The notes: generated by a model from the letters alone, not told the origin. DNA of 32,352 nucleotides from a virus (IMGVR_UViG_3300032335_000831:1-32352), one strand, 5' to 3'. Positions 1-21,931 are shown, numbered from the stretch's first letter. Translations and numbers: made by a program.

Positions 1-336
1 TACAACATTCAGTTCAGCGTTCAATTTGTAAACACCGACAACAACATCCACGACACCGATATTTGGATGCGTAAAAACGGCGTAAATGTGCCTGACACTA
101 ACAGCCAGTTTTCCGTGCCCAATCGGCACGGCAGCATAGACGGTCACTTGATTGGCGCGTTGAATTTGTTTATTGATTTAGCCGCAGACGAATACATCGA
201 ATTAATGTGGGCAACTACTAACGCCTCCACTACAATTCAGTACATTGCTGCACAAACCGGGCCAGTTCGCCCGGCCACGCCGTCAGTCATATTAACTGTG
301 TCGATAGCCTCTGTGCCGACATTACAGGGAGTTTAA
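1..336 (+). CDS. Virion structural protein, 5'-truncated (beta-rich, tail-associated)
   Basis: Frame 1 is open from base 1 (YNIQFSVQFVNTDNNIHDTDIWMRKNG...) to TAA at 334-336, so the ORF-track start at 67 is internal. Lies upstream of the ejection genes. Confidence 0.6.
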   Translation, partial: YNIQFSVQFVNTDNNIHDTDIWMRKNGVNVPDTNSQFSVPNRHGSIDGHLIGALNLFIDLAADEYIELMWATTNASTTIQYIAAQTGPVRPATPSVILTVSIASVPTLQGV

Positions 337-7178: not shown

Positions 7179-7272
7179 TAGTTGGCCTCCATCCGAATTT
7201 TCTCCATGTTTCTTTGATGTCTGTAGCCGCTGCGGGCACATACTTAAAACTTGCATCTAGTAAAGATTTCAT
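7087..7272 (-). CDS. Hypothetical protein (FKYVPAAATDIKETWRKFGW)
   Basis: GGAAG upstream; ATGA-coupled to the 309-aa gene. Confidence 0.6.
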   Translation of the reverse strand: MKSLLDASFKYVPAAATDIKETWRKFGWRPTNELPNMRPVVNSKSDKNKKRNNQTIQDVRQ

Positions 7273-8198
7273 TTTTCTTCCTTGTGTGGCAAAACATAAA
7301 TCATTTCGCCCTTAAAAAGAATTTTCTCAACTGGCACAAACCTATCAGTGTTGTAAACATGATTTTTGTAGATCCAAGAAAGTGTTTTTGCAAAAAAAAG
7401 GACGTTTCGCCAAGCTCCTGGCTTTGTCTCAATGTCGTAATTAGGCAAAGCGTAGCCGGCATCAAAAATATCTTGCACACAATCAAACTTTTTCATTTTT
7501 TCTTCTGCAATAGGTTTTTTTAAGCGCCGTATTTCAAATAACTTTTTAACCCGTTGTTCACGAAATTTATTTTTAACAGTAAGGCAGTGACTTGCATAAG
7601 CACGTGCTTGCTGAAAATCAATCTGAATAGGTTTTATTTCGCTGCGACGTTTTTCCAATTCAACACAGGCTTTGACTACGTTTTCAAACGTCCGAAGTTT
7701 TTCACCACTGGCGTCGCTTAATTTATTGCTATATTTTCTGAATTCAGCCTCGGCATTGATGAGGGCAACGCCCGTTTTTCTACGAGCCTCTTCAATAACC
7801 CAAAGGTCGGCTTTGGTTTTGGCAAGTTGCTCTTGCAATATAGGGTTTGCTATTTTTTCTATCTCTTTTTTTAAACGCAATATTTCAAGCCCCGTTTTAA
7901 TGGCCTGTTCACGATTGTTATCTTCAGCATCGACAGCTTGACGTACCCCTTCTTGTGTTCGCATAAAATCAGGCATAACGTCCGCTCCTGCGTCGCGGCA
8001 ATTGTCGTACTCAACACAAGCTTTTTCTACGTTTACACGCGCCTTATATTCCGCAGAACTGGCTTTGTCTAGGTTCTTGCTACTTTTTTCGTATTCAATC
8101 GCGGCAAATGCAAAGGCAGTTTTTGCTTTTTTGTGGGCCTCTTTAATGACTTGAAGATCGGCCAAAGCTTTGGCAAGTTGCTTTTGATAGTCACTCAT
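7269..8198 (-). CDS. Coiled-coil protein with a 117-aa internal duplication (309 aa)
   Basis: QLAK..ADL.VI.EA...KACVE...REQ......EI.RLKK.I occurs twice; AT-rich. Confidence 0.75.
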   Translation of the reverse strand: MSDYQKQLAKALADLQVIKEAHKKAKTAFAFAAIEYEKSSKNLDKASSAEYKARVNVEKACVEYDNCRDAGADVMPDFMRTQEGVRQAVDAEDNNREQAIKTGLEILRLKKEIEKIANPILQEQLAKTKADLWVIEEARRKTGVALINAEAEFRKYSNKLSDASGEKLRTFENVVKACVELEKRRSEIKPIQIDFQQARAYASHCLTVKNKFREQRVKKLFEIRRLKKPIAEEKMKKFDCVQDIFDAGYALPNYDIETKPGAWRNVLFFAKTLSWIYKNHVYNTDRFVPVEKILFKGEMIYVLPHKEEK

Positions 8199-8611: not shown

Positions 8612-8701
8612 TTACATCTTTGACCATGCGACCAACACCTCCGCAAACAACCAACACCAAACAACAAAGGCAATGGAAGCGGCGATGATTTCGCTATTCA
8701 T
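8612..8701 (-). CDS. 29-aa hydrophobic peptide
   Basis: MNSEIIAASIAFVVWCWLFAEVLVAWSKM*; AAGGGGG SD lies in the end of the previous gene. Confidence 0.5.
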   Translation of the reverse strand: MNSEIIAASIAFVVWCWLFAEVLVAWSKM

Positions 8702-8897
8702 TTTGCCCCCTTGCTCGGATGGCGGCTGCAACACTGCGACCCAATGGGCTGCGGCCGCTTGTTAAGAAATCTTCTGCCACCTTTGCACAAGCCTCACGCT
8801 CGTCAGCTTGTCCTTTTTTGTAAGCGTTCTCGGCCATCGCGACTGCATCAGATGCAAGCGTCCAAAGATCGCCATCAAACATTTTTGCCGGCGTCAT
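8694..8897 (-). CDS. Modular early protein (EREACAKVA...AAAIRARG family), 67 aa
   Basis: Start moved to ATG 8897 (AAGGGGG SD, ATGA overlap); shares motifs with 8982..9461. Confidence 0.7.
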   Translation of the reverse strand: MTPAKMFDGDLWTLASDAVAMAENAYKKGQADEREACAKVAEDFLTSGRSPLGRSVAAAIRARGQNE

Positions 8898-8989
8898 GTC
8901 TGCCCCCTTGCTCGTATGTATGAGATTGTTATGTGCTGCCCAACGAACATTCCAGCCAAGAAACACAAGAGTAAAGTCCACTCATCCAT
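8894..8989 (-). CDS. 31-aa hydrophobic peptide ending IRARG
   Basis: MDEWTLLLCFLAGMFVGQHITISYIRARGQT*; fills the gap exactly; AAGGGG SD. Confidence 0.55.
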   Translation of the reverse strand: MDEWTLLLCFLAGMFVGQHITISYIRARGQT

Positions 8990-9461
8990 GATTCGTACCC
9001 CTTGCTCGGATGGCGGCGGCGATAGAGTTTGCTGTCAACAGAGATGCTGTGCGTACTCCCGGCAGGTAAGTCTCAGGATCGCTTGCCGGCCTCGGGTCTC
9101 TACCACTGTCAGCTACCTTTGCACACGCCTCGCGCTCGGCTTTTACGCGATCCGCTACCTGGCATTCCATGTCTGACATTAAACCTTTTATGCGCTGCTC
9201 TATCTGCCACCCAAGTTCGGTCAGCAGGTCTTTTGTTGAGTCACCCTGGCTGGCGGTGTAACCCATCCATTCGTTCAGCTTGTCGCGTTCTGTGTCGTAG
9301 GTGTAGCCATGCGCCATCATCCATGCGACCAGCTTGTTGCGCTCGTCAGCGCGGACAAGGGCAGCGAAGCGTTCAAGCCGGTTCGACTCGTCGTCATTCC
9401 AGTGCTGGTGCCAGTCGATGTCTGCCTCTCGCGCCATGCGGATGATGTCGTCGCGGGTCAT
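8982..9461 (-). CDS. Modular early protein (MTRDDIIRMAREA...EREACAKVA...AAAIRARG), 159 aa
   Basis: ATG 9461 overlaps the stop of 9458..9637; also has an internal ERNKL..WM/ERDKL..WM repeat. Confidence 0.75.
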   Translation of the reverse strand: MTRDDIIRMAREADIDWHQHWNDDESNRLERFAALVRADERNKLVAWMMAHGYTYDTERDKLNEWMGYTASQGDSTKDLLTELGWQIEQRIKGLMSDMECQVADRVKAEREACAKVADSGRDPRPASDPETYLPGVRTASLLTANSIAAAIRARGTNHG

Positions 9462-9637
9462 GCTTGATCCTTTAACCATTTAATTTCGTCTCGCAGTTCC
9501 TCCACGACTTGGATGAGTCCAATAAGCATGGCCTCTTTAATGTCCTCAGTTATGCCGATAACTTTAATCCCGCGATCCCTGACCTCTATCGCAAGGTCTT
9601 TGCCGGGAAAATACGGAATGTCTGATGGTTTTGTCAT
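9458..9637 (-). CDS. 59-aa hypothetical protein (absent from ORF track)
   Basis: MTKPSDIPYFPGKDLAIEV...EIKWLKDQA*; AAGGAG SD; ATGA-coupled at both ends. Confidence 0.65.
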   Translation of the reverse strand: MTKPSDIPYFPGKDLAIEVRDRGIKVIGITEDIKEAMLIGLIQVVEELRDEIKWLKDQA

Positions 9638-9840
9638 GTGTTCTCCTTGAGTTTGTCGGCGCGAGCTTGGCTGTAAATTTTTGGGATCAAGTCAAGCCAC
9701 TGTTGTGCGATTTTTTGGTACAAAACGTCGGCACGCTTTAGAACGTGGCTGAGATCATCGGCAGGCTCAATAACGTATGCGTTTAACGCTACGTCTTCTA
9801 ACTTATCAGCCAGTCTCATAGCGTCGGTTTGTTTGCTCAT
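9634..9840 (-). CDS. Modular early protein MSKQTDAMRLADKLE..., copy B (68 aa)
   Basis: AAGGAG SD before ATG 9840; first 27 aa identical to 15497..15892. Confidence 0.7.
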   Translation of the reverse strand: MSKQTDAMRLADKLEDVALNAYVIEPADDLSHVLKRADVLYQKIAQQWLDLIPKIYSQARADKLKENT

Positions 9841-9843
9841 TTG
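9759..9843. repeat. 85-bp direct repeat, copy 1 (copy 2 at 15811-15895)
   Basis: Aligned by eye: 83/85 identical; both differences are synonymous. Confidence 0.95.
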
Positions 9844-10483
9844 GTTTCTCCTTTGCCGCAGCAATGGCGGCGCTGATGTAAGCATTCTTAGCTTCAAGCC
9901 ATCTTCGATCTTCTAATGGATTTTCCTCGCGGTAACGAAACGGATATTCCCCGTTGTGTCCCTCATCACTGTTCATAAAGCCCGCAAGGTATGCATCCTC
10001 CAGCCATTGCACATCAATCAGCGGCTGGCGATGTGCGGATGCCAGAATTTCATCCATTCTTTCAACAACCCATTCCAGGGCAGTGAAATAGTCGTTGTCT
10101 ACCGCGCTGTGGCCATGCATGCCCCAACGGCCTTCAGTCCTGTCAATGTCTGCCTTAATCCTGTTTCGCAAATTCTGCCAAGCTAATTGGTCATGCACAG
10201 GTGCTGGCTGTGCTGCGGGTTGGGTGGTGTGGAGCGGCTTAACTTCAGCGTGATCGCCTTTGTATCCCGCCATCTTCAGAGCCTCGTCGTACTCTTGAGG
10301 TAGGTACAGGTCATGCGCGTTTCGCCCCTCAAACACGGCCCACGCCACCGGCTCCTGCTTCTCAGCCGCCTCGATGGCGGCGTCTAGATCGGCAATGGCC
10401 TCATCGGCCCAAGCATGGTCGCAGTGTCCGTGGCGCGCCGCTTTCAGCCCCTCACGGGCCTTTTTCATTGCGGTGATGCTCAT
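9806..10483 (-). CDS. Modular early protein (MK..L...AEKQEPVAW...TTQPAA...RQPL), 225 aa
   Basis: Shares linker motifs with 10480..10899, 13745..14059 and 14056..14856. Confidence 0.75.
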   Translation of the reverse strand: MSITAMKKAREGLKAARHGHCDHAWADEAIADLDAAIEAAEKQEPVAWAVFEGRNAHDLYLPQEYDEALKMAGYKGDHAEVKPLHTTQPAAQPAPVHDQLAWQNLRNRIKADIDRTEGRWGMHGHSAVDNDYFTALEWVVERMDEILASAHRQPLIDVQWLEDAYLAGFMNSDEGHNGEYPFRYREENPLEDRRWLEAKNAYISAAIAAAKEKPNEQTNRRYETG

Positions 10484-10515
10484 GTGTTCTTTCCTGTAAT
10501 GCCGTGGGCGGCTTC
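10480..10515. repeat. 36-bp direct repeat spanning a gene end and the next start codon (copy at 14056-14091)
   Basis: tcatgtgttct(t/c)tcctgtaatgccgtgggcggcttc, 1 mismatch; encodes EAAHGITG(K/E)NT* plus ATG. Confidence 0.9.
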
Positions 10516-10899
10516 CGCAAACCGAACGCCAGCCGTAAAATAATCGGAATTAAAGCCCCAAGAAGCGCGGCGACCTGATTCAATTTGTGCTTGTGTCAGC
10601 AGCTTGCGCTGTGCTGCTGTGGCAACCATCGAATCAACTGTCGCTCGGGCCGAATCCCACTTGCCCAGCACTTCACCTCCACCTTTGAGACTTAGCAATG
10701 CCTGAATTAAAACTTCTGTGCAAGGGTGGTAGTAAGGTTGGCTCGCTTGTTTCTCAGCCTTTGCGATTGCGGTACGAAGGTCGGCAATGCTCTCGTCGTA
10801 CCAAGCGGTTCCCTCCGGATGCTTAATCTTTTCTTGCGTAGTCACAAATACGCGGCTGCGCTGGAGCGCCTCCAGCGCCTGCTTCATTGCTTCGATCAT
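10480..10899 (-). CDS. Modular early protein (MIEAMKQALEAL...EAAHGITGKNT), 139 aa
   Basis: GGAGG SD; same termini as 14056..14856. Confidence 0.75.
   Translation of the reverse strand: MIEAMKQALEALQRSRVFVTTQEKIKHPEGTAWYDESIADLRTAIAKAEKQASQPYYHPCTEVLIQALLSLKGGGEVLGKWDSARATVDSMVATAAQRKLLTQAQIESGRRASWGFNSDYFTAGVRFAEAAHGITGKNT
10865..10896. repeat. 32-bp direct repeat encoding IEAMKQALEAL (copy at 14819-14850)
   Basis: agcgcctc(c/a)agcgcctgcttcattgcttcgat, 1 synonymous mismatch. Confidence 0.9.
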
Positions 10900-11099
10900 T
10901 TAGTCCTCCAGCATCTAAAGGTGCCATCTGGCATCTGACGGGTAATAAATTTCATTCCGTGCTTGTCACCGTAGCGCCGCGCAGCAACAGATGCTGTCTG
11001 GCGCTTGGTTGTTATGACAAAGCTATCACCGACTTCCATCTGGTCAAACGGAAAGCGGTTAGGGATAGGTACTCCCTTGTCAATAGGGGGCTGGTTCAT
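10896..11099 (-). CDS. Small putative DNA-binding protein (IDKGVPIP..FPFDQMEVGDSF)
   Basis: Recognisable small phage protein motif; basic C-terminal half. Confidence 0.65.
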   Translation of the reverse strand: MNQPPIDKGVPIPNRFPFDQMEVGDSFVITTKRQTASVAARRYGDKHGMKFITRQMPDGTFRCWRTK

Positions 11100-11161
11100 A
11101 GTCGTCTTTGCTGGGGTTAAACTTATCAGGCCCAGGCGGTTGCCCAGGCCTGTCCAAAGGA

Positions 11162-11350
11162 TTAGGAAACTTCGGAAACGGCCACATAAGACTGCAAAGC
11201 CTCGATAAGTTCTTGCATCTGCTTTTGGTTAAGCTGAGCATTCATAGAGCCGCAAATTGCGTTGATAGACAGATACACGCCTCCGGTGGTGGTCATTGGC
11301 GACACAAACACCATTTGATCGCCTGCTTTTACTTGCTTGTACACATTCAT
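11162..11350 (-). CDS. Hypothetical protein (MNVYKQVKAG..., 62 aa)
   Basis: GGAG SD before ATG 11350; the track ORF extends further upstream. Confidence 0.55.
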   Translation of the reverse strand: MNVYKQVKAGDQMVFVSPMTTTGGVYLSINAICGSMNAQLNQKQMQELIEALQSYVAVSEVS

Positions 11351-11351
11351 G

Positions 11352-11558
11352 TCAATTCTCCAGTTTGTAAAACCAATTGTTGCCCCTGCGCTTGCAGGAA
11401 ATACTGAACCCGTTTTGCCGTAGCTCTGAGATGATTGCACTTACAGCGCAGACACGGGCTTTTTGTATGATCTCCAAAGTTGTTAACTCTGGGTTCTTCC
11501 TCAAAACTTTAAGCGTTCTTAACAGCCTGGGGCTGTTGTTGATGTTGGCGTACCGCAT
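11352..11558 (-). CDS. Winged helix-turn-helix protein
   Basis: LTTLEII...AVSAIISELRQNGFSI....GNNWFYKL matches a wHTH recognition helix plus wing. Confidence 0.7.
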   Translation of the reverse strand: MRYANINNSPRLLRTLKVLRKNPELTTLEIIQKARVCAVSAIISELRQNGFSISCKRRGNNWFYKLEN

Positions 11559-11560
11559 GA

Positions 11561-11818
11561 CTAAAAGGGAAGATCTTCGTCAAAATCAGGCTTTGCTTGA
11601 CGCACTGGCCGGGCCTGTTGTTCTTCTTTCTTCGGCTCGTTGATGTACGCCCAGCCGTCCCAGCCGCCCTCTTTTAGCGGGATGTTGTCGATCTTTAGCA
11701 TTGCACCATTGCGCGTCTCAATGATTGACCCGATACGGCTGTACCGCTTCTTGACCTCGCCCTGGGCGTTTTTGTACTCGCCCGTCACGCACGAAATTTC
11801 TTTAAGAATTTTGCTCAT
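11561..11818 (-). CDS. Single-stranded DNA-binding-like protein
   Basis: Beta-rich core (GEYKNAQGEVKKRYSRIG) and acidic tail DFDEDLPF resembling the SSB C-terminus; next to the recombination genes. Confidence 0.7.
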   Translation of the reverse strand: MSKILKEISCVTGEYKNAQGEVKKRYSRIGSIIETRNGAMLKIDNIPLKEGGWDGWAYINEPKKEEQQARPVRQAKPDFDEDLPF

Positions 11819-12432
11819 GATTCCATCCTTTGTGTAAGAGCTTGCACTTTTTCATTTACCTCTGCCAGAAACTTAATGACTTCAGTTTCCGCATTTTTTA
11901 ACCACTCGTCATCAGCATTTACCCTAATAATGACAAGTTGTAACTTTTGCGGAAAGCGACTGTCATACACAACGTAATCGCACCACTGCCGGCCAGCGCA
12001 GCGCATTTGCCACTGCATCTGCGCGTGGTACTTGCCCGCGACCGTTTGCGATAGCAATGCCTCTAAAAAGGTTGCTGACTCTGGGCACTTGATCTCTACC
12101 ATCCCATCAGCCCCGACAAGGCCATCAGGAGACGCTCCAGCCATCTCAATCGTCGGGTGCGGGAGAAATCCCACCTCATCGACCATCGCGCCCCTATAAG
12201 CCTCGTATGCGGCCCTGGCAAACGGTTCCTGCTCGATGCCCCATTGCATCGCAGCATTGGTGTAGCCCTCTGCCCTAGTGCCGGTGATGCGCTCTAAAAC
12301 AAGCTGGGTCATGTAATGATTGCGATCAGCACCGTAACCCGTCTTTGTCTTGGCAAGAACCTTGTGCAAGTTGCTGGCCGTCACTTTGCCCAAGCGTTGC
12401 TGGTGCCATTCTTCTGTTCCTTGCTCAGTCAT
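11815..12432 (-). CDS. YqaJ-like (lambda-exonuclease family) nuclease
   Basis: EQGTEEWHQQRLGKVTAS, MQWGIEQEP.AR, GASPDG, VEIKCP, QMQWQM motifs; start at ATG 12432. Confidence 0.93.
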   Translation of the reverse strand: MTEQGTEEWHQQRLGKVTASNLHKVLAKTKTGYGADRNHYMTQLVLERITGTRAEGYTNAAMQWGIEQEPFARAAYEAYRGAMVDEVGFLPHPTIEMAGASPDGLVGADGMVEIKCPESATFLEALLSQTVAGKYHAQMQWQMRCAGRQWCDYVVYDSRFPQKLQLVIIRVNADDEWLKNAETEVIKFLAEVNEKVQALTQRMES

Positions 12433-12664
12433 GCTTGCCCCTTGCCTTGAGCATAGCGTCTGCTTGTTGGTATGCGGCGTAAGCCGTTTCGAAAAAGGTC
12501 GTGTCTTGTCGCCAATCACGGTCTGACAAAAGACCTTGCATCGCCTTGGCCGCGAAGTAGTCCCGCAGGGTCATGCCATCTTCCGCCATTGCTTCAGTCC
12601 ATGCTTTGTCTCCCCATTCTTTACCGGCGCGTGGAAACGCTGGCCCGCCTGTGGTATCGCTCAT
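12425..12664 (-). CDS. Conserved phage protein (GGPAFP...GMTLRDYFAAKAMQ...ADAMLKAR)
   Basis: Recognisable motif family of unknown function; CAGGAG SD. Confidence 0.8.
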   Translation of the reverse strand: MSDTTGGPAFPRAGKEWGDKAWTEAMAEDGMTLRDYFAAKAMQGLLSDRDWRQDTTFFETAYAAYQQADAMLKARGKHD

Positions 12665-12680
12665 GCTTGCTTCTCCTGTT
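12659..12680. repeat. 22-bp perfect direct repeat flanking the 149-aa gene (copy at 13105-13126)
   Basis: gctcatgcttgcttctcctgtt at both ends; on the coding strand AACAGGAGAAGCAAGCATGAGC = SD + stop/start overlap. Confidence 0.92.
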
Positions 12681-13110
12681 GAAATTTCAATTTAATTGCA
12701 AAGCCACCGTAGTAACCGTTGTGCTCGTTGTGTGATGCCATCGTCAGCGCACCTTTACTAGTCATTAATTCCAAGAACTGAACTTCATGATCTCCGTCTT
12801 CATCTTCCATGTTAGGCGCTTCTTTAAGTTCTATATTTAATAGCGTTGCACCAATAAAATCCTCTAATTTGTCGTCAGTTCGCATGTATCGACTTTCGCA
12901 ACAGGATTGCCCGCTATCAAAAATATTCAGCGTTGATGCATCGTCAAACTCCAGTCTCAAAGTATCTATACTGACGCCATCCCATTCGGGTTCTACTGTT
13001 GATAATGCAACGTGCTTGATGGTCTTGCCAATTGCCTTTTGATATGCGTTAACTGTTTCAGCATTGCCACCTAAAATATTAATCATCACGCCTAGTCCTA
13101 AATTGCTCAT
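12661..13110 (-). CDS. Hypothetical acidic protein (QSCCE...HNGYYGG), 149 aa
   Basis: Clean AT-rich ORF with possible metal-binding CCE/H motifs. Confidence 0.75.
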   Translation of the reverse strand: MSNLGLGVMINILGGNAETVNAYQKAIGKTIKHVALSTVEPEWDGVSIDTLRLEFDDASTLNIFDSGQSCCESRYMRTDDKLEDFIGATLLNIELKEAPNMEDEDGDHEVQFLELMTSKGALTMASHNEHNGYYGGFAIKLKFQQEKQA

Positions 13111-13664
13111 GCTTGCTTCTCCTGTTTGGCACGGGCAACCCTGGCGGCCTTGGCATCAATCACCCGCTTGATAAGGTCTTGATGGCCCTGGCAAGCCTCG
13201 TAAGCCTGCTTGTAGACCGCTTGCAGTTCCTCACCCGTCGTAGTGGCCTCAATGGTTGCTAGGTGGTCTGTAATGTCGGGTTTTGGGCCTTTGCGAACCG
13301 CTGCATTGCCATCGTCATCCTCTGGAGCGATGCCGCAAGCTGCCATCAGGCTGTAGCGCCTAGCGTAAGTCAGAGCAGACCCAAAGCCCTGGGCGTCATG
13401 TTTTGTGGCCGGGACATGAATTTGCCCGCAAGAAAAAGTCTCGCCGCTTTCGTGAATGAACACTGTTTCGACCAAAACACCAGTGTCAGACGGGCTTACC
13501 CGCTGCGTGAAGAAAATGCCGTTTGCTGAAAGCCCATCCATAACCGCCTCAACGCAGGCCGAAAGATCGGCGTAGCGTGAGCGGAAGTGCGGGTTTGTGC
13601 TTGTTTTAAGTGCTGGGCCGAAGGCTTTTTGAGCCTTGACCAGTGCGCTTGCTATCTTGTCCAT
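13107..13664 (-). CDS. erf: ERF-family single-strand annealing protein
   Basis: NPHFRSRYADL and AQGFGSALTYARRYSLMAACGIAPEDDDGN signatures. Confidence 0.93.
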   Translation of the reverse strand: MDKIASALVKAQKAFGPALKTSTNPHFRSRYADLSACVEAVMDGLSANGIFFTQRVSPSDTGVLVETVFIHESGETFSCGQIHVPATKHDAQGFGSALTYARRYSLMAACGIAPEDDDGNAAVRKGPKPDITDHLATIEATTTGEELQAVYKQAYEACQGHQDLIKRVIDAKAARVARAKQEKQA

Positions 13665-13669
13665 TTTTG

Positions 13670-13752
13670 CTCCTAAAAAGACCCCAGCGGATTGCCAGGG
13701 AATGCGATGATTGTATAGACCGCTAGACAGTGTGAAATAGGTACTTACCCTA
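13670..13752 (-). promoter_or_regulatory. Leftward promoter module 1 (upstream of erf)
   Basis: TAGGTACTTACCCTA (13738-52), TGTATAG-N4-CTAGACA (13712-29), -10 TACAAT (13710-15), leader hairpin, SD AGGAG. Confidence 0.7.
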
Positions 13753-14059
13753 TGTTCTTCTCCTTAAGTTTGTTTTCCACGGCAGTTATTGTTGTGGCCA
13801 GCGAATCCGGGTAGTGCTCTTGATAAATTTGCTCTCGCTCGTCGCCTGTCAGCCCAACCCACTGTCGCTGTGCTGCGCAATCGTTGAAGCCTTTCTCATA
13901 GGTCGCAATCAGGTCATCCGGCATTGGCTTCTGCTTCTCAGCCTGCTCGATGGCGGTGCGGAGGGCGGTGATGGCGGTCTCATGCGCTATTTTGTTTTGT
14001 GGGATTGGCGTGCTGTACTTCAGCGCCTCAAGCGCCAGCTTCATTTCTTCGATGTTCAT
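13745..14059 (-). CDS. Modular early protein (MNIEEMKLALEAL...AEKQ...AQRQWVGLT...KLKEKN), 104 aa
   Basis: ATG 14059 with AGGAG SD and ATGA overlap. Confidence 0.75.
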   Translation of the reverse strand: MNIEEMKLALEALKYSTPIPQNKIAHETAITALRTAIEQAEKQKPMPDDLIATYEKGFNDCAAQRQWVGLTGDEREQIYQEHYPDSLATTITAVENKLKEKNIG

Positions 14060-14856
14060 GTGTTCTCTCCTGTAATGCCGTGGGCGGCTTCGACGGCGCG
14101 GGCAAACTCGGTTTGCTTTTCGCCACTGCAATAGTTGACCAAAGTGATTTTGCACTGCTCAATGATCTTGTCGATCCGCTCCTGCTTCAGCGGCTGGCGC
14201 TGTGCTGCGCCGTATTTACTCAGCGCAAGGCGCATCGAGGCTATGCCATCAATTGTCCCGTCCGGTTTCTCAACCCAACACTTCATCAATTCAAAGTCAT
14301 TAGGTGCTGGCCGTGCTGCGGGTGGGGTGGTGTTTTTAAAGGTGCAATACTCTTTTGCATCACCTTCATCAACAAAAACCGCTTGTGCATGTGCCGCAAT
14401 CGCTTCATCCAAGGGACATTTCATGTTTCCCTCAAAAACATCTCGCCAGACCACATAGCCGCGACCGTTTACCCACTGATGTTTGAGTGGCCACTTTGGG
14501 ATTGTTTTGGCCTGTGCTGGCTTTTGCGCTTCTTCCGGCAGTTCGACCCAGCCTTCGACTGCGTTCCAGTAACCAAGCGGCTCCTGCACAGGTGCTGCGG
14601 GTGGTGTGGTGTAGCTTGCGCACTTAAACGGCTCATACCAAGCTCGCACTTCGGGTGAGAAGGCTTTGTATTGAGCATCTGTCACAAAACGCTCAAACCC
14701 AGCAATGCCAGTAAATCGCCACGCCACTGTCTCCTGCTTCTCAGCCTCTGCGATGGCGGTTCTTAAAATTCGGTGCGCTTCCAACGAGCCTTTAGACATT
14801 GATTTCTCCCATTCTTCCAGCGCCTCAAGCGCCTGCTTCATTGCTTCGATGGTCAT
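14056..14856 (-). CDS. Multi-module early protein (266 aa)
   Basis: MKQALEAL, AEKQETVAW, TTPPAA (twice), AQRQPL and EAAHGITGENT linkers. Confidence 0.8.
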   Translation of the reverse strand: MTIEAMKQALEALEEWEKSMSKGSLEAHRILRTAIAEAEKQETVAWRFTGIAGFERFVTDAQYKAFSPEVRAWYEPFKCASYTTPPAAPVQEPLGYWNAVEGWVELPEEAQKPAQAKTIPKWPLKHQWVNGRGYVVWRDVFEGNMKCPLDEAIAAHAQAVFVDEGDAKEYCTFKNTTPPAARPAPNDFELMKCWVEKPDGTIDGIASMRLALSKYGAAQRQPLKQERIDKIIEQCKITLVNYCSGEKQTEFARAVEAAHGITGENT

Positions 14857-14951
14857 GTGTTTTTCTCCTTACATTTGTGAAACGGCATAGCCCGACCCAG
14901 CAACCCAATAAGTTCGCCGCATTTTTGACAGCAATAGAACGGATACTTCAT
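14853..14951 (-). CDS. 32-aa Cys-rich peptide ending KEKNT
   Basis: MKYPFYCCQKCGELIGLLGRAMPFHKCKEKNT*; GGAGGAG SD; ATGA-coupled at both ends. Confidence 0.6.
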   Translation of the reverse strand: MKYPFYCCQKCGELIGLLGRAMPFHKCKEKNT

Positions 14952-15151
14952 GCCTTGCTCCTCCACGCATTCCACACAATACATCCGATGGCCCACAATA
15001 CAGACGCTGCAAGCGCGCCGGCCCATGCAGTTAATACCCACTCGTACCCTGGCTCTAGCGTCCCCAGCATTTCAGAGATACATATCGAAACAAACGGAAT
15101 GCCGGTAATGATTACCGCGCTGCGGGGGAAAAAGTAATCAATCTTCTTCAT
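14948..15151 (-). CDS. Two-TM membrane protein (67 aa)
   Basis: AAGGAG SD before ATG 15151; two hydrophobic segments. Confidence 0.65.
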   Translation of the reverse strand: MKKIDYFFPRSAVIITGIPFVSICISEMLGTLEPGYEWVLTAWAGALAASVLWAIGCIVWNAWRSKA

Positions 15152-15375
15152 GTTTTGCTCCTTGCTGGCCACCACTCGGGCCGGTCTGTCCATTTGATGT
15201 TTGATTGCTCACTCCGCATTTCTGCCAGAATTGACGCGGAATGTGCGGTGTCGAAGTGATACGCTGGGCAGCTCCAAAACTTTCCGTTCCACCAACGAGT
15301 TGCGCTAACGTCTTGTTCGGAGCTCGCAGGCCACCAGCCAATGCTGGGCGGCGGGCCTTTATGCCATTTGGTCAT
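15148..15375 (-). CDS. Trp-rich hypothetical protein (WHKGPPPSIGWWPAS...RWWNG..WS)
   Basis: ATGA-coupled at both ends. Confidence 0.7.
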   Translation of the reverse strand: MTKWHKGPPPSIGWWPASSEQDVSATRWWNGKFWSCPAYHFDTAHSASILAEMRSEQSNIKWTDRPEWWPARSKT

Positions 15376-15500
15376 TTTTGTTCCCCCGCTGCCCGCAGTG
15401 CAGCAGCCCAGGTGCGCAGAAACCGTGTAAGGTCTTCTTCTGTCGGCTCTTCAATCGTTGCGCTGATTTCAAGCCAAGCACGTCGCATTGCTTCGTTCAT
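15372..15500 (-). CDS. 42-aa hypothetical protein (absent from ORF track)
   Basis: MNEAMRRAWLEISATIEEPTEEDLTRFLRTWAAALRAAGEQK*; AGGAG SD; ATGA-coupled at both ends. Confidence 0.6.
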   Translation of the reverse strand: MNEAMRRAWLEISATIEEPTEEDLTRFLRTWAAALRAAGEQK

Positions 15501-15892
15501 TTGGTTTCTCCTGTTGCTTTGGTGATGGCGTCAACTGCTTGTTGCAGAGCAAACGGGTCGATGCTGTTACGGTTGGCGCGTTCAAACAAAATTTGCAGCG
15601 CCTCCAGCAGTTGCGCGTTTACTGCGCGGAGCTTGATGCACTCATCAACTCGCCTGGCTACAGATTCGAATGCTGGGCCTTTGTAGTCTTCATGCATTTG
15701 CCGAGCTTTAACCGCAGTTTCTGGCGTATCCGCGCAGGCTACAACGTCGCATGCTGCAAGACGCATACGTTCGCGCTCAATCTCTGCTTCCAACCGGCGC
15801 AGTTCGGCTACGGCAGGCTCAATCACGTATGCGTTTAACGCTACGTCTTCTAACTTATCAGCCAGCCTCATAGCGTCGGTTTGTTTGCTCAT
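15497..15892 (-). CDS. Modular early protein MSKQTDAMRLADKLE..., copy A (131 aa)
   Basis: GGAGG SD; AELRRL, LLEALQ and AITKATGE segments. Confidence 0.75.
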   Translation of the reverse strand: MSKQTDAMRLADKLEDVALNAYVIEPAVAELRRLEAEIERERMRLAACDVVACADTPETAVKARQMHEDYKGPAFESVARRVDECIKLRAVNAQLLEALQILFERANRNSIDPFALQQAVDAITKATGETK

Positions 15893-15984
15893 TTGCTTGC
15901 CTCCGGATACGGGTAAGCCAGCTCAAAAAGCCTGGCAACTGTCAACAATTGCCTAAACTGCGCTTCGGTTACTGAATATTTCAT
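15889..15984 (-). CDS. 31-aa hypothetical peptide
   Basis: MKYSVTEAQFRQLLTVARLFELAYPYPEASK*; fills the gap with ATGA overlaps at both ends. Confidence 0.55.
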   Translation of the reverse strand: MKYSVTEAQFRQLLTVARLFELAYPYPEASK

Positions 15985-16193
15985 TTGCGTTTTCCTTTTT
16001 TAGGGTCTTGCCGAACCAGCGGTTCCTGCGGATCGTTGTAGTCAATGACGTACTTGTGGCCGTTGTACGTTATGCCGCCGTAGTGGCGGGCAATTGATAG
16101 CTGGCTGTCGAGCCATCCGTAAATGCGCTCTGGTGCATCATTGGGCCGCAGACTTGGCGGGTCTGTCAGACTGAAACTTGTGTAAGACATCAT
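15981..16193 (-). CDS. Hypothetical protein, first gene of the leftward early operon
   Basis: AGGAG SD at 16196-16200; SQLSIARHYGGITYNG motif. Start could be 16190. Confidence 0.7.
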   Translation of the reverse strand: MMSYTSFSLTDPPSLRPNDAPERIYGWLDSQLSIARHYGGITYNGHKYVIDYNDPQEPLVRQDPKKGKRK

Positions 16194-16195
16194 CA

Positions 16196-16311
16196 CTCCT
16201 GGTTAGACCGCAACATCGCGGCATGGGTAGACTGTACAGTCACCTAAACATTTGCACACTAGGGAAAACCCCAATGTTCACTAAACTTGACTTTGATCTA
16301 GAATGCATCCC
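16196..16311. promoter_or_regulatory. Divergent promoter region (module 2): leftward early operon / rightward cro
   Basis: TAGGGAAAACCCCAA (16260-74), TGTACAG-N4-CTAAACA (16233-50), leftward -10 TACAGT (16231-36), rightward -10 TAGAAT (16299-304). Confidence 0.7.
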
Positions 16312-17246: not shown

Positions 17247-17603
17247 ATGTTTGAGAGTGGATTTGAAAGATTCTGGGCAGCATGGCCTAAAAGCCCCAGG
17301 AAAGGCGCAAAGGCTGCTTGTCTAGCGAAGTGGAAAAAGCACTACTACGAGACATGCGCCGATCAGATTTTGAAGCATGTTGAGTGGATGAAAACCACAG
17401 ACCAGTGGCGCAAAGACAACGGGGCATTTGTACCGGCTCCTCTGGTCTATCTGAACCAGCAACGATGGGACGGAGCAGAGATACCAGAGATCAAAAAACC
17501 CGTGACGATGGCAGAACAGTACCAGGAGCGCATTGCAGGCACTGTGGCCATGCCTGACCATATCCGTGAGCGCCTGGCACAACTGAGGAGGGGCAATGAA
17601 TGA
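17247..17603 (+). CDS. Short replication protein (resembles the C-terminal domain of phage replication initiators)
   Basis: AAGGAGG SD; FERFWAAWPK..RK..K...W and FVPAP..YLNQQRWD motifs. Confidence 0.7.
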   Translation: MFESGFERFWAAWPKSPRKGAKAACLAKWKKHYYETCADQILKHVEWMKTTDQWRKDNGAFVPAPLVYLNQQRWDGAEIPEIKKPVTMAEQYQERIAGTVAMPDHIRERLAQLRRGNE

Positions 17604-18336
17604 GCTGGCTCTTTTCGCAGGCGCTGGTGGCGGAATACTTGGGGGCAAACTGCTCGGATGGCGAACAGTCTGTGCAGTTGAGTGGGAACCCTACCCAGCT
17701 AGCGTACTGTGCGCCCGACAAAATGACGGCCTTCTCCCGCCTTTCCCGATTTGGGATGACATTCAAACCTTTGACGGAAGACCGTGGCGCGGAATTGTTG
17801 ACGTTGTATCTGGCGGGTTTCCATGCCAAGACATTAGCTCAGCAGGGCGAGGCGAAGGCCTGGACGGAGAGAGCAGCGGAATGTGGCACCACATGGCGCG
17901 GGTGGTTGGCGAGGTACGACCCAGCTACGTCTTTGTGGAGAACAGCCCAATGCTCACTACTCGAGGAGGAACAAGAGTCATTGCAGACCTTACCGCGCTG
18001 GGGTATGACTGTAGGTGGACTGTTATGGGAGCTGCCGATGTTGGAGCAAACCATCAAAGAGACAGGATCTGGATCGTTGGAAAAATGGCCGACACCTCAA
18101 TCCTCGGATTGTCGAGACAGGGGCAACATGAGCAATCCAGCAATTCAGCGCAGGGTACAGAAAGGAAAGCAGTTGAACTTATCTATGGTCGTACATCCGA
18201 CTTCTGGAAAATTGAACCCAACCTGGGTAGAGTGGCTGATGGGGTGGCCGCTCGGGTGGACAGACTTAAAGCCATTGGAAACGGACAAGTCCCATTGTGT
18301 GCAGCAACAGCATGGAATCTCTTAAATGACATATGA
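17596..18336 (+). CDS. C5-cytosine DNA methyltransferase, alpha polypeptide
   Basis: Motif I LFAGAGG, IV GGFPCQ, VI FVENS, VIII HQRDRIW, X RLKAIGNGQVP; no motif IX in this frame. Confidence 0.92.
   Translation: MNELALFAGAGGGILGGKLLGWRTVCAVEWEPYPASVLCARQNDGLLPPFPIWDDIQTFDGRPWRGIVDVVSGGFPCQDISSAGRGEGLDGESSGMWHHMARVVGEVRPSYVFVENSPMLTTRGGTRVIADLTALGYDCRWTVMGAADVGANHQRDRIWIVGKMADTSILGLSRQGQHEQSSNSAQGTERKAVELIYGRTSDFWKIEPNLGRVADGVAARVDRLKAIGNGQVPLCAATAWNLLNDI
17600..18325 (+). CDS. Overlapping +1-frame protein, probable methyltransferase beta polypeptide (motif IX-like)
   Basis: 241 codons open inside the MTase gene; WPTP and LNPTWVEWLMGWPLGWT segments; shares SD GAGGAGG. Confidence 0.7.
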   Translation: MSWLFSQALVAEYLGANCSDGEQSVQLSGNPTQLAYCAPDKMTAFSRLSRFGMTFKPLTEDRGAELLTLYLAGFHAKTLAQQGEAKAWTERAAECGTTWRGWLARYDPATSLWRTAQCSLLEEEQESLQTLPRWGMTVGGLLWELPMLEQTIKETGSGSLEKWPTPQSSDCRDRGNMSNPAIQRRVQKGKQLNLSMVVHPTSGKLNPTWVEWLMGWPLGWTDLKPLETDKSHCVQQQHGIS

Positions 18337-19484: not shown

Positions 19485-20261
19485 TTATTCGACAGCGGTT
19501 TGACCAGCTTTGATGATTTTTTCAGCAGCACCGAAAATGCGCTGCGCGGTTTTGTCGGTAATTGAACCACCAGCTAACCACGATTGGATGTAGCCCCGAG
19601 ACTCATTCAAGCCCGGAAGATCAAGAACCGAGCAACAGATGTAAGCCACCCCCTCTGCTTCGACTTCGGCCATGTTTTTAGGCGTGGCCTCAGAATCAGA
19701 CAACAGACCCTCCGATGTATGCCCAAGCACTACATGGGCCAATTCGTGAAACCGTGTCTTGTGCGGCAGGGCAGCAATTGGAGAGACAGCGATATTGCGC
19801 CCGACAGCGTAACCCTGACAGTTACCGTTAGGATACTCAAATTTTATCTGGGTAATATCCAAGGTTTGCAAAGCCTTTTCGGCATCCCAAACGGGCGATG
19901 GCACATCGTTGGCGTAGTCATCACCCTCTGTCTGATCGAGGACAAACCAATTGTTTTTAAGGACAAAGGCTTGCAGGAATTCCCCGGTTTTCTCGCCCGA
20001 CTCATCTTTTTTAGTAATTGTGACGGGCATACGCAAAGCAATTGCCTTAGCCCCTTTTTTAACGTTACGCCCCAAGGCTTGCCAGCGTTTGTAGGTTGCA
20101 ATCGGCCCAATTGGGATATCCCTTGCGAAACACTGTGAGTAGGCGAGCATTTGGTTTGGGATACTGTACCCATGAAAAGCCCGGTAGGCTTGCGAGATGA
20201 TGCCCGGCTGATTGACCGCATCGGACAATAGGTTAAACCAGTTAACAGATGGTGTAGACAT
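19485..20261 (-). CDS. ArdC-like protein (ssDNA-binding N-domain plus zincin-like HExxH domain)
   Basis: YS..NQ.L, ATYKRWQALGRNVKKG.KA, F.LDQTEG, HELAH and EVEAE.VAY motifs; start ATG 20261 after GGAG. Confidence 0.8.
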   Translation of the reverse strand: MSTPSVNWFNLLSDAVNQPGIISQAYRAFHGYSIPNQMLAYSQCFARDIPIGPIATYKRWQALGRNVKKGAKAIALRMPVTITKKDESGEKTGEFLQAFVLKNNWFVLDQTEGDDYANDVPSPVWDAEKALQTLDITQIKFEYPNGNCQGYAVGRNIAVSPIAALPHKTRFHELAHVVLGHTSEGLLSDSEATPKNMAEVEAEGVAYICCSVLDLPGLNESRGYIQSWLAGGSITDKTAQRIFGAAEKIIKAGQTAVE

Positions 20262-20269
20262 GCTAAAGG

Positions 20270-20386
20270 CTCCAAATAGACCCCTTGCGATATGCTGGGG
20301 CATGTGTGCTATTGTATAGCCATCTGGACGTTGCACACTAGGACAAACCCTAATAGACCACTAGTGAAAACCCTTAGAATTGCACC
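20270..20386. promoter_or_regulatory. Divergent promoter region (module 3): ArdC-like gene / terS
   Basis: TAGGACAAACCCTA (20339-52), second site TAGTGAAAACCCTTA (20362-76), TGTATAG-N4-CTGGACG (20313-30), leftward TACAAT (20311-16), rightward TAGAAT (20375-80). Confidence 0.7.
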
Positions 20387-20924: not shown

Positions 20925-21203
20925 AGACGCACGACGGCGGGCGCCGGCCTGTTCTTTGCGGTACTCTTTTCGGATTAAATCCGATAAGTAGCCCATTGAA
21001 GGCCGCCAAATCAAAGTGACGCCAGCATGGGCGAGTTTTTCGCAGACTTGCTGCCCTTCTTTCATAGGGTCAAAGATTTCGCGGACATAGCCGCCAGCCG
21101 CCGGGGCTGTGAATGTGCGAGCCCAACGGGCGCCGTCTTCGGCATCGGTGTATTCGATGGTGCAGGCGCTTTCACTGTGATCTGTCATTTTCATACGTTC
21201 CAT
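20919..21203 (-). CDS. Hypothetical protein (94 aa)
   Basis: GGAG SD; GGYVRE and QVCE.L...G.TL segments. Confidence 0.7.
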   Translation of the reverse strand: MERMKMTDHSESACTIEYTDAEDGARWARTFTAPAAGGYVREIFDPMKEGQQVCEKLAHAGVTLIWRPSMGYLSDLIRKEYRKEQAGARRRASA

Positions 21204-21209
21204 AATTTG

Positions 21210-21287
21210 CTCCGATTAGACCCCGAAGGGCATTAGTGCAACAGCGCACCCCATAGCCCAAATGGGCTAGAGGGTAGGTTGTTAGGC
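21210..21287 (-). repeat. Structured intergenic repeat, copy 2
   Basis: Shares the 19-bp core ATTAGTGCAACAGCGCACC and GCTAGAGGGTRGGTTGTYAGGC with 21464-21543. Confidence 0.85.
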
Positions 21288-21458
21288 TTTGCTTGTCACT
21301 CGGATAGGGACTAACACAATGTCTCTGTGCCCGCTGATGGTGAGCCGAGCGATTAACTTAACTGACCGCAATTTGGTGCGCAGTTTCGTGCCCATTGGCG
21401 ATGAGTAGCTGGTAGGAGTTTTATATTCCCTGATTTGGTAGAGTGTGCGAGTGTGCAT
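21282..21458 (-). CDS. 58-aa basic protein (absent from ORF track)
   Basis: MHTRTLYQIREYKTPTSYSSPMGTKLRTKLRSVKLIARLTISGHRDIVLVPIRVTSKA*; sits exactly between the two repeats. Confidence 0.6.
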   Translation of the reverse strand: MHTRTLYQIREYKTPTSYSSPMGTKLRTKLRSVKLIARLTISGHRDIVLVPIRVTSKA

Positions 21459-21463
21459 GATTT

Positions 21464-21543
21464 TTCCAAATAGACCCGTTAGGGATTAGTGCAACAGCGC
21501 ACCACATAGCACCCAATGGATGCTAGAGGGTGGGTTGTCAGGC
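21464..21543 (-). repeat. Structured intergenic repeat, copy 1
   Basis: As for copy 2; hairpin sequences differ but pairing is kept. Confidence 0.85.
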
Positions 21544-21810
21544 TGCTACCTTAGCGCGACGGGCGCGAACCGTAGCGTAAGCCCAATTGGTAGCGTCAGC
21601 CTGATTGGCAAAATATTTGCTGCGCTGCTGGACCCCAAATTCCTGCCAATCGCCGTACAGGCACACGCGCCGGGCGCTTTGCACCCATGCTGCATATGTC
21701 GCGCCGTTATTGTTAAGACCAACAATCCAGCCTATTTCGCGGCCCTTGCTGTCCTTGCGGCCCGTGCCCACGAAGTGCTCGGACATGTCGTTGAAAGGTG
21801 CATCTGCCAT
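21538..21810 (-). CDS. Hypothetical protein (90 aa)
   Basis: AGGAGG SD before ATG 21810; DSKGREIG motif. Confidence 0.7.
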   Translation of the reverse strand: MADAPFNDMSEHFVGTGRKDSKGREIGWIVGLNNNGATYAAWVQSARRVCLYGDWQEFGVQQRSKYFANQADATNWAYATVRARRAKVAA

Positions 21811-21815
21811 CTTAA

Positions 21816-21931
21816 ATCCTCCTAATAGACCGCCCTGCGAAGTGCTTGCGGCATACCCTCTATTGTCTACGTGGCTAGACACGAGTCACTAGGACAAACC
21901 CTAACATCTCGCCAAGAATGGTAGGTAGTCT
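21816..21931. promoter_or_regulatory. Promoter module 4 (leftward island; possible rightward partner promoter)
   Basis: TAGGACAAACCCTA (21890-903), TGTCTAC-N4-CTAGACA (21864-81), leftward GACAAT (21862-67), rightward TAGTCT (21926-31). Confidence 0.65.

Follow-up and report, generated by a model that had tools for sequence, protein, structure and literature searches.

Early genes of a freshwater phage composed of small protein modules and short in-frame joints conserved as DNA

The window analyzed here, a stretch of 32,352 nt, carries early genes of a freshwater phage that are built of small unrelated protein pieces and short joints. Four of these genes are members of a large family in uncultured phages with a common grammar, in which a helical N-cap, n middle modules and a C-cap are united in frame at fixed joints. 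Judged from sequence comparison, relatives display near-free reassortment of modules, bounded by the joints, and the joints themselves are conserved to their silent sites. We posit that the modules are probably exchanged between co-infecting phages through ordinary phage annealing recombination.

Modules, joints and repeats in the window

The four family genes lie where the original prediction placed them (Table 1), and the three DNA words it named recur at 10355/13931/14734, 10210/14313/14592 and 10018/14187. A 32-nt block at the start (10865-10896 and 14819-14850) and a 36-nt block at the end (10480-10515 and 14056-14091) are common to the 139-aa and 266-aa genes, each with 1 mismatch as claimed. 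Repeats in 8612-16193 exceed chance, because this region holds 130 same-strand 12-mer pairs, whereas second-order Markov simulations (n = 30) average 2.7 and never exceed 7; the counts for three comparably sized regions elsewhere in the window are 39, 27 and 3. Part of the 130 pairs derives from an 88-nt duplicate (9759-9846 and 15811-15898, 97%) absent from the prediction. The window's own joints match each other perfectly over 14-24 nt, and over 41 and 29 nt within this duplicate; its joint copies depart from the majority joint sequence.

Pieces of the 104-aa gene recur in separate relatives: the N-cap in P0019, the middle module in P0075, P0087, L238 and L424, and the C-cap in P0003 and P0178. 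The modules of the 139-aa gene have few relatives in the assembled set, and contigs from two other runs span this gene end to start. Contig pieces covering 10194-10355 and 9850-10199 of the 225-aa gene match single modules or module pairs, and pieces from another run end at 14596/14597, inside the first listed J3 of the 266-aa gene.

A second (K) vocabulary is real, with repeats at 8773-8802/9109-9138 and 8707-8729/8998-9020, and the stretch 8694-9461 that it was said to build divides into three genes (159, 31 and 67 aa), the 31-aa gene having been overlooked. Residues 1-30 of the latter are 100% identical in L281. The first half of the 67-aa gene resembles L182 (92%) and its second half L345 (94%), with the switch at joint 8773-8802. 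Conservation of the K joints is lower (0.52-0.80). The DUF7448 gene, set between two copies of a junction repeat, is a whole-gene cassette; a contig piece from another run covers 12651-13134.

Table 1. Genes, joints and modules of the early region (positions in the window)
Feature	Coordinates	Strand	Remarks
67-aa K gene	8694..8897	-	Cys-containing joint 8773-8802
31-aa gene	8894..8989	-	terminates in K end joint
159-aa K gene	8982..9461	-	Cys-containing joint 9109-9138, end joint 8998-9020
68-aa gene	9634..9840	-	first 27 codons common with 131-aa gene (88-nt duplicate), divergent afterwards
225-aa family gene	9806..10483	-	N-cap, two middle modules, terminal module
225-aa gene joints	J2 10340-10366, J3 10199-10231, J4 10018-10036, end joint ~9845-9871	-	
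139-aa family gene	10480..10899	-	J1 10864-10899, J2 ~10747-10779, J4 10596-10617, J5 10480-10515
85-aa protein, acidic tail	11561..11818	-	putatively SSB-like
YqaJ-like exonuclease	11815..12432	-	Pfam PF09588, E 4.2e-27
149-aa DUF7448 gene	12659..13126	-	22-nt perfect gene-junction repeat on both sides (12659 / 13105)
ERF-family single-strand annealing protein	13107..13664	-	Pfam PF04404, E 8.8e-21; phrog_2324
104-aa family gene	13745..14059	-	N-cap, short middle module, C-cap
104-aa gene joints	J1 14021-14059, J2 ~13925-13975, J4 ~13847-13876	-	
266-aa family gene	14056..14856	-	N-cap aa 1-46, C-cap aa 217-266
266-aa gene, four middle modules	~aa 41-88, 91-113, 114-180, 176-218		joint-to-joint matching blocks in relatives
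J1, start helix, 266-aa gene	14818..14856	-	aa 1-13; coordinates by arithmetic
J2, 266-aa gene	14719..14766	-	N-cap hairpin end and next module's first strand; aa 31-46
J3 (Thr/Pro/Ala-rich), then J2-type module opener, 266-aa gene	14566..14613	-	aa 82-97
Second J3 copy, 266-aa gene	14302..14334	-	aa 175-185
J4, C-cap opener, 266-aa gene	14187..14208	-	aa 217-223
J5, 266-aa gene	14056..14106	-	C-terminal helix, embedded Shine-Dalgarno-like run; stop/start overlap with 104-aa gene
131-aa gene, third vocabulary	15497..15892	-	start duplicated at 9634-9840; end present in L002

Module reassortment and silent-site conservation

A search with the 266-aa protein gave 233 matches of 146-466 aa; among the 120 listed (119 besides itself), none but the protein itself is a full-length, high-identity match. 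Of these 119, 98 have only joint-to-joint blocks in common with it, and the 107 ungapped blocks end at a joint or terminus 98 times on the left and 100 times on the right, one of the joints counted (aa 108-115) having been set after inspection of the data. In DNA matches, 502 of 673 internal ends fall at a joint or no more than 2 codons from one, whereas random placement gives 33% on average and 38% at most; the remaining 171 lie away from the defined joints, some just beyond the patterns and some genuinely so, as with five blocks that stop at aa 162 of the 266-aa protein. The sample is biased toward conserved joints, because DNA patterns of the joints served to retrieve the majority of loci. 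The joint patterns also derive from the very sequences examined, of whose residues they take up 21%. The retrieval bias is lessened, although not removed, by a degenerate scan and by genes from loci found through protein search only, in which 96 of 121 ends fall at joints (random mean 40, maximum 57).

Codon register is kept in 614 of 620 matches, the next module differs in 274 of 299 module-sharing pairs, and the N-M-C order is broken in only 2 of 140 complete proteins. In P0003, two 266-aa gene modules are joined to a 225-aa gene module and the 104-aa gene C-cap; P0013 and P0019 show further mixes, and modules are cleanly replaced or inserted amid flanks that are 89-99% identical (e.g., L349 versus L393). 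Short conserved sequences part non-homologous modules, as in linker-mediated modular shuffling. As originally predicted, the fixed in-frame joints are where modules are exchanged, gained and lost, and the relatives compared did not show a pattern of collinear full-length orthologues with breakpoints off the linkers. Shuffling within one genome, in contrast, found no counterpart in the source run: the contigs of X1, which drop rare variants, contain no rearranged form of the window genome, and one 4.8-kb contig crosses every joint of the 104-aa and 266-aa genes with zero differences.

The joints are conserved as DNA. Their silent sites agree at 0.71-0.97, compared with 0.35 in ERF (34 conserved columns, 66 ERF genes), and within the same genome pairs at 0.77 versus 0.36 (156 matched pairs, 20 loci). 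Next to homologous modules of 45-65% amino-acid identity, J3 keeps 136 of 142 silent sites (0.96), whereas the silent sites of those modules are saturated (62 of 216 kept, 0.29). Conservation at the protein level only, with saturated synonymous sites, is not what the linkers show. Perfect matches between random joint copies have a median length of 17-28 nt, depending on the joint. Codon bias was rejected as a cause: module cores have an expected pairwise silent-site identity of 0.26-0.28, and the same amino acid is encoded by different fixed codons in different joints.

Proposed exchange at the joints and competing explanations

We posit that exonuclease resection would expose a single strand, in which a perfect match of 17-28 nt would pair one joint type only with the same type in another genome, so that order and frame would be preserved. 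Annealing would be carried out by ERF and YqaJ here and by Sak4-like or RecT proteins elsewhere, with co-infecting phages as partners. A double crossover could replace a module, an unequal crossover could add or drop modules, and a spreading module would carry its own joints along. Joints that match the majority would receive and donate more modules, thus homogenizing silent sites across otherwise diverged phages; homogenization alone may be insufficient for the near-invariance of J3. The median matches between random joint copies lie near the 23-27 nt minimal pairing length of Red-beta, and the phage D3 ERF recombines equally well (the available part of PMC3945230).

The joints are predicted to lie at domain edges, with caps formed by helical hairpins and middle modules clasped by their first and last β strands, and most chimeras would therefore be expected to fold. 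They occupy such edges in the structure model of a 151-aa relative, L009 (pLDDT 74, pTM 0.42); the 266-aa protein itself is modeled poorly (pLDDT 46). Because C-terminal joints carry the ribosome-binding site of the next gene, whole genes could be swapped likewise: among 156 family genes with the typical tail, a Shine-Dalgarno-like run is present in 145 and is accompanied by a 4-nt stop/start overlap in 119.

The ERF/YqaJ/SSB block was originally cast as the dedicated machine of the array, a role rejected in view of the varied recombinase neighbors of family loci. Among the 13 family loci that span 12 kb or more, only 4 have an ERF relative, other loci adjoin AAA_24 (Sak4-like) plus DUF669 or RecT plus YqaJ, and only 13 of 80 ERF loci have a family gene. 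ERF is probably just one among several recombinases that can work on the joints. Were the left and right gene pairs to recombine by one crossover, the recombination genes themselves would be lost. The gene named SSB is present, with no Pfam or PHROG match, and its name is putative. The expectation that no site-specific recombinase takes part agrees with the 49 ORFs scanned in the window, a probably incomplete contig, among which Pfam finds none, including tyrosine or serine recombinases of the integron or shufflon type; nor do the joints form one repeated target, as they comprise several unrelated types.

Six four-fold codons of J3 are 96-100% invariant across 81 independent upstream modules in a scan permitting all synonymous codons, and two adjacent Pro codons are fixed differently. 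This near-invariance, retained beside saturated modules, would suit a quite improbable alternative in which the joints, chiefly J3, are protein recognition sites (Chi-like sites read by a host nuclease, or targets of an unknown phage recombinase) that direct exchange by sequence. However, no single word recurs throughout the joint types (five or more), the three dialects and the two further vocabularies, match ends spread across several codons in each joint, an integrase-type gene is absent among the window ORFs scanned, and the adjoining recombinases differ between loci. Less probable still is that silent sites are conserved for an RNA or translation role (ribosome binding, coupling or pausing between domains), with recombination exploiting a by-product. 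Such a role fits the C-terminal joints, with their overlaps and Shine-Dalgarno-like runs, and J2 has a purine-rich run as well, but J1, J3 and J4 have neither kind of run. Moreover, J3 is read in a single sense frame, open in 191 of 200 contexts (the other two in 16 and 7), and its antisense frames are not clearly more open than elsewhere, which argues against an overlapping gene as the source of its conservation. An ordinary paralogous family, with a conserved scaffold, fast-evolving loops and duplication but no special exchange at joints, is very improbable: the caps and the first and last strands would make a plausible scaffold on the predicted folds, J1-J2 dialects stay linked (57/68, 22/38 and 10/12) and in 9 of 12 same-locus pairs both genes use one dialect (0.45 expected), yet modules 85-100% identical beside unrelated neighbors, and joint silent sites far above those of ERF or adjacent homologous modules, already contradict it.

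Distribution, function and comparison with known systems

Pfam, PHROG and PADLOC give no match for any family gene in the window; one module of L016 matches phrog_6755 and phrog_18351 (Gam-like/host nuclease inhibitor) over 44-46 residues. No PDB fold matches at E 0.001, viral structure matches are mostly uncharacterized, and Atlas matches fall below 0.9. A tblastn search of 50,697 phage records with the 266-aa protein gave 2 matches, each to an uncultured spring phage and confined to the N-cap; blastn finds 14 records with short matches. A search for prophage copies in a sample of 401 genomes, drawn from the family to which one MAG belongs, gave 2 with a match. J3 has 12 matches in GTDB, and six contigs carry family genes, labeled Betaproteobacteria, Pseudomonadota, Burkholderiaceae, Polaromonas, Rhodoferax and Dechloromonas; because all six are MAG contigs, possibly binned phage, they only suggest a host. 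A Rhizobacter-labeled genome has no family profile match, and five GTDB matches in other phyla yielded no family gene in the screen.

Our guess, on which we are evenly poised, is that the products are non-essential early proteins presenting small binding domains against host or rival-phage proteins. It is possible, although unlikely, that the joints form a community-wide connector standard across freshwater phages, from which about a thousand mini-domains are assembled into folded, multi-headed, antibody-like binders of host defenses without a dedicated recombinase. Selection for compatibility would then keep a few in-frame joints nearly invariant, and the order of assembly fixed, across differing lineages and recombinases. 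The family accounts for the lack of full-length homologues among many freshwater phage proteins, gene-level clustering misreads such shuffled proteins, and a catalogue of pre-cut mini-domains offers material for anti-defense screening.

It has been debated for decades whether conserved linkers or random illegitimate joins give rise to phage mosaicism. Linker or boundary sequences of the modular theory are reportedly treated by Clark et al. in 2001. Among 83 lambdoid mosaics, about half have a detectable flanking shoulder and six have two, according to the available part of PMC2327257. Linkers of the modular theory and the PeSL cassettes of T4-type phages support general-recombination crossovers between unrelated modules (PMC2839356, PMC2327257, in part). 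The C-terminal joints of the window would likewise serve as crossover sites at gene boundaries, but the known boundary linkers are intergenic promoters or terminators, whereas the main joints are internal to reading frames, where it is domains that are shuffled. Cassettes of the promoter/stem-loop type were rejected, since the joints are coding and promoter- and terminator-like sites (9 and 13) show no excess over shuffles (8.3 and 15.1).

In the T-even gp38 adhesin, as described in the accessible text of PMC3157838, glycine-rich motifs part hypervariable segments and exchanges often occur in or near the motifs. Both systems place in-frame conserved motifs between variable segments and lack a dedicated recombinase. 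Yet gp38 is one structural gene with four fixed segments, whereas the window family comprises several early genes per genome, with variable numbers of mini-domains, hundreds of module types and silent-site conservation ("synonymous" does not occur in that text). Family genes have no glycine-rich motifs or Pfam/PHROG match and occupy an early operon.

The lambdoid Ea22/EaA/DUF550/DUF551 genes also have mosaic domains and lie in an early operon beside erf (PMC10834534); the part of that paper available notes mosaicism, with no joints or mechanism and no use of the word "recombination". P22 eaA is at least 80% covered in only 18 of 590 phage records, and its matches recur as short blocks. No Ead/Ea22, DUF550 or DUF551 domain was found in window genes (Pfam, PHROG), and a scan of 181 family proteins likewise gave neither Ead/Ea22 nor DUF550; a portable DUF551 forms a module of P0117 (1 of 43 relatives; 0 of 138 in a second set). 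The family profile aligns with EaA over 18 columns only (hhalign, probability 17%), and Foldseek matches to Ead/Ea22-like, DUF551 and DUF550 proteins are weak (E 0.013-0.037).

Recer sequences and target-recognition-domain movement in restriction-modification genes, as far as the accessible part of PMC3467074 describes them, resemble the family in shuffling domains of intronless genes through short in-frame repeats (15 bp; 19-49 bp), which encode conserved motifs. They concern surface proteins of bacteria, or methyltransferases, and involve few types of domain, whereas the window family draws on a pool common to a phage community and follows an ordered grammar of several joints. Polyvalent proteins of phages and conjugative elements, proposed to act in host conflict, likewise string many unrelated small domains on one chain, but are large and carry ArdC-N, MPTase and similar domains, none of which occurs in the family genes scanned; "linker" is absent from the available text, which describes none (PMC5512222).

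The available parts of PMC8022706 and PMC10684548 contain no linker mechanism. The literature searched, with subscription journals outside its coverage, yielded no description of the window gene family and no paper on a "WDGH domain". The shuffling principle is already known from T-even gp38, linker theory, recer and mosaic Ea22/EaA, and the window family is an unusually fine-grained case of it. Its linkers are explicit, intragenic and ordered, and their silent sites can be measured, which opens both the linker model and the idea of selection for recombination compatibility to direct tests.

Array layout and module grammar

From 16196 down to ~8200, the minus strand of the window carries small genes in a chain, mostly coupled via 4-nt stop/start overlaps, and every gene, DNA word, and common start or end block named in the original prediction was found where it had been placed. 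Repeated 12-mer pairs number 130 in this array region, vs 2.7 in Markov simulations, and 39, 27, and 3 in other regions of the window. The second vocabulary is indeed present, and the K genes in its stretch number three rather than two. An 88-nt duplicate gives two further genes identical first 27 codons, after which they are unlike.

Pfam matches identify a P22-like portal, an Sf6-like small terminase, Cro, RusA, a C5 methylase, ERF (a single-strand annealing protein), and the exonuclease YqaJ in the window of 32,352 bases. The contig is probably incomplete, since a Pfam scan of 49 window ORFs turned up nothing of the integrase type and the window showed no capsid gene. Runs containing parts of the array region are labeled metagenome, freshwater, or lake water. 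The intergenic repeats of a second early region, one of which recurs upstream of the array, are possible promoter cassettes, and the central block of a 79-aa gene is probably a fourth joint vocabulary.

Coordinates of features in the window and in relative loci (L numbers)
Sequence	Position	Strand	Feature
Window	9806-10483	-	225-aa family gene
Window	10480-10899	-	139-aa family gene
Window	13745-14059	-	104-aa family gene
Window	14056-14856	-	266-aa family gene
Window	8694-9461		K genes (159, 31, and 67 aa)
Window	9759-9846 / 15811-15898		88-nt duplicate, 97%
Window	14596-14736; 14329-14597; 10194-10355; 10497-10888; 9850-10199		Contigs of other runs begin/end at joints
Window	9806-9871	-	Last module of 225-aa gene runs ten codons further, over next gene's start; five relatives end three residues past end joint
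L001 (same phage)	Window 10197		1-nt deletion just past J3; 225-aa gene broken into 99-aa and 130-aa products
Window	12425-12664	-	79-aa gene; central 19-residue block 79-95% alike in otherwise different genes, many loci
Window	21201-21288 / 21456-21544		Intergenic repeat (82%) flanking small minus-strand genes
Window	20264-20353 / 21813-21904		Intergenic repeat (71%), likewise flanking
Window	16252-16275		Recurrence of one intergenic repeat
Window	7269-8198	-	309-aa A+T-rich ORF, internal duplication (spacing 351 nt), without family match
Window	17596-18336 / 17600-18325	+	C5 methylase ORF, overlapped over full length by 241-aa other-frame ORF without Pfam match
Window	19485-20336	-	283-aa protein, ArdC N-terminal (anti-restriction) domain, E 2.5e-8
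L423	1310-1753	-	WDGH domain
L334	925-1764	+	WDGH domain
L429	2759-3712	-	P22 eaA; nt 732-797 block matched by itself, ~85-93%, in many lambdoid phages

Relative loci were collected via the 266-aa protein (36), via ERF (80), from GTDB (12), and via three joint-pattern scans (at least 121, 58, and 121, with estimates of ~480 and ~190 stretches for two of the scans). ORFs carrying two or more joints number 411 in these loci; 296 are distinct, and 279 are left once near-duplicates (90% identity across the shorter member) are dropped. A full-length relative at ≥70% is present for just 13 of the 279. The family grammar comprises a helical N-cap (start joint J1 to J2), middle modules with a J2-type opener and the Thr/Pro/Ala-rich closer J3, and a C-cap with J4 as its opener and J5 as its closer, an order violated in 2 of 140 complete proteins, with 1 to 8 parsed modules per protein. 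A crude parse yields 864 modules: 119 N (88 clusters), 411 middle (291), 163 C (137), and 171 unassigned. The Chao1 estimate for middle modules, ~1,165, is a rough figure because variant joints escape the parser.

Reassortment of modules at the joints

That joint-bounded domain reassortment is real is well supported. Similarity between relatives mostly ends where the original prediction had placed the breakpoints, at the linkers: among 620 DNA matches (≥85%, each with at least 15 module residues), 502 of 673 distinct internal ends lie within 2 codons of a joint, against a random expectation of 33%, and codon register is kept in 614. Genes from the protein-search loci give 96 of 121 ends at joints, vs 40 at random, and the next module is unlike in 274 of 299 module-sharing pairs. 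Collinear full-length orthologs with breakpoints off the linkers were absent: among the 120 matches listed of 233 for the 266-aa protein (lengths 146-466 only), the sole full-length close match is the protein itself. It has 107 ungapped blocks in common with 98 of the 119 others, and their ends, counted from block lists, coincide with a joint or terminus in 98 cases on the left and 100 on the right; the exceptions are chiefly five blocks at aa 120-162. For the 225-aa protein the pattern is the same.

Individual relatives illustrate the outcome. P0003 is a mix of modules from three window genes, P0013 carries a 225-aa gene module between 266-aa gene caps, and in P0019 the 104-aa gene's N-cap is followed by the 266-aa gene's first middle module. 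Of nine pairs with two matches flanking a gap, several are clean whole-module replacements or insertions and three are short indels. Contigs from runs X1 (the source run), X2, X6, X8, X11, and X13 were compared with the window, and contigs of other runs begin or end at joints in five stretches (see the table). The 67-aa K gene matches one relative in its first half and another in its second, switching at its joint; across 88 parsed K genes, the first segment is common to 12 pairs, the second to 9, and both to 2. The vocabularies are linked, with a K-type tail on P0142 and continuation of P0129 and P0131 into the third vocabulary. The junction at the end of the 225-aa gene looks, from its sequence, as though joined out of frame, and the 1-nt deletion in L001 may be genuine or an assembly error. 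The WDGH domain, also found in the relative protein P0036, occurs both as a middle module and in a gene outside the family screen, which suggests that modules may be recruited from free-standing genes.

The modeled structure of L009, a 151-aa relative having two modules in common with window genes (pLDDT 74, pTM 0.42), passes from a helical hairpin through a beta-rich mini-domain with one helix to a second helix pair; within the predicted mini-domain, the J2 word is the first strand and the pre-J3 word the last. The low pTM of this model fits a beads-on-a-string architecture. A structure search found no PDB match for this fold, and viral structure matches are mostly uncharacterized proteins. 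Named modules are rare (above the Pfam cut-off, WDGH 1/43 and DUF551 1/43; in a second set, WDGH 1/138), and in 1 of 66 a single module matches PHROGs whose annotation is Gam-like or host nuclease inhibitor. Given gene position and module diversity, interaction of family proteins with the host is a reasonable guess.

Joints as DNA and the probable route of exchange

The joints are conserved as DNA, as had been proposed, and not as peptides with saturated silent sites: across 156 genome pairs from 20 loci carrying both, silent sites agree at 960/1,248 in joints vs 3,493/9,655 in ERF. A J3 peptide scan allowing all synonymous codons returned 107 contexts, of which 81 have upstream modules independent of one another; invariance at the six four-fold codons of J3 is 96-100%. 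When copies are compared in pairs, identity at four-fold codons reaches 0.71-0.97 across all joints, and 0.92 among 31 J3 copies from loci not chosen by J3 DNA, compared with 0.35 for ERF (34 conserved columns, 66 genes) and 0.26-0.28 expected from codon use of modules; K joints are less conserved (0.52-0.80). Between homologous modules (45-65% identity), module silent sites agree at 62/216 vs 136/142 in the adjoining J3, many of these loci having been found by J3 patterns. J3 uses a single reading frame. Judged from sequence, the C-terminal joints do a second job as start signals for the next gene, and their conservation is due in part to the Shine-Dalgarno-like run and overlap with the next start in 119 of 156 typical C-terminal tails. 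For the uniform silent sites generally, we infer two causes: joints would hitch-hike with spreading modules, and joints of the majority type would be at an advantage. It is also possible that a protein recognizes the joints as a site.

Between random copies of one joint, the perfect match has a median length of 17-28 nt (biased upward by anchoring on exact cores). Red-beta requires 23-27 nt, and phage D3 ERF with its exonuclease equals Red in performance on identical and 78% identical substrates (PMC3945230). From these lengths and activities we infer that an annealing-type enzyme would recombine joints of the same type. ERF cannot be cast as the dedicated shuffling enzyme originally envisaged, since it is present in 4 of 13 family loci of at least 12 kb and a family gene in just 13 of 80 ERF loci. 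Among family loci, three carry AAA_24 and DUF669, neighbors that we take to be Sak4-like, and one further locus carries RecT and YqaJ.

Modules are more likely to be exchanged between genomes than within one because (i) the window's own joints match one another perfectly over 14-24 nt only, (ii) ERF and YqaJ would be lost in any crossover joining the left gene pair to the right, and (iii) the source run contains one uniform 4.8-kb contig across the right gene pair (contigs hide rare variants) together with other contigs that carry the same joints around different modules. The 88-nt duplicate, the repetition of modules within single loci, and dialect agreement (the same joint variant) in 9 of 12 same-locus pairs suggest that unequal exchange occurs as well.

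Comparison with known systems

No published account of the window family was found in the literature, subscription journals lying outside our coverage. The nearest biological parallel is the lambdoid EaA/Ea22 group of mosaic early proteins (PMC10834534), although a profile comparison of the window family with EaA aligned just 18 columns, at a probability of 17%. Of 590 phage records that match P22 eaA, 18 cover at least 80% of it, and in the remainder the matches are recurring short blocks; its nt 732-797 block shows the pattern that a joint preceding DUF551 would be expected to give. The window family works in a similar way to T-even gp38, in which exchange occurs within conserved motifs separating variable segments (PMC3157838), to gene exchange through PeSL cassettes or linkers (PMC2839356, PMC2327257), and to the movement of domains by recer sequences or in restriction systems (PMC3467074). 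By membership tests the window family belongs to none of these three systems.
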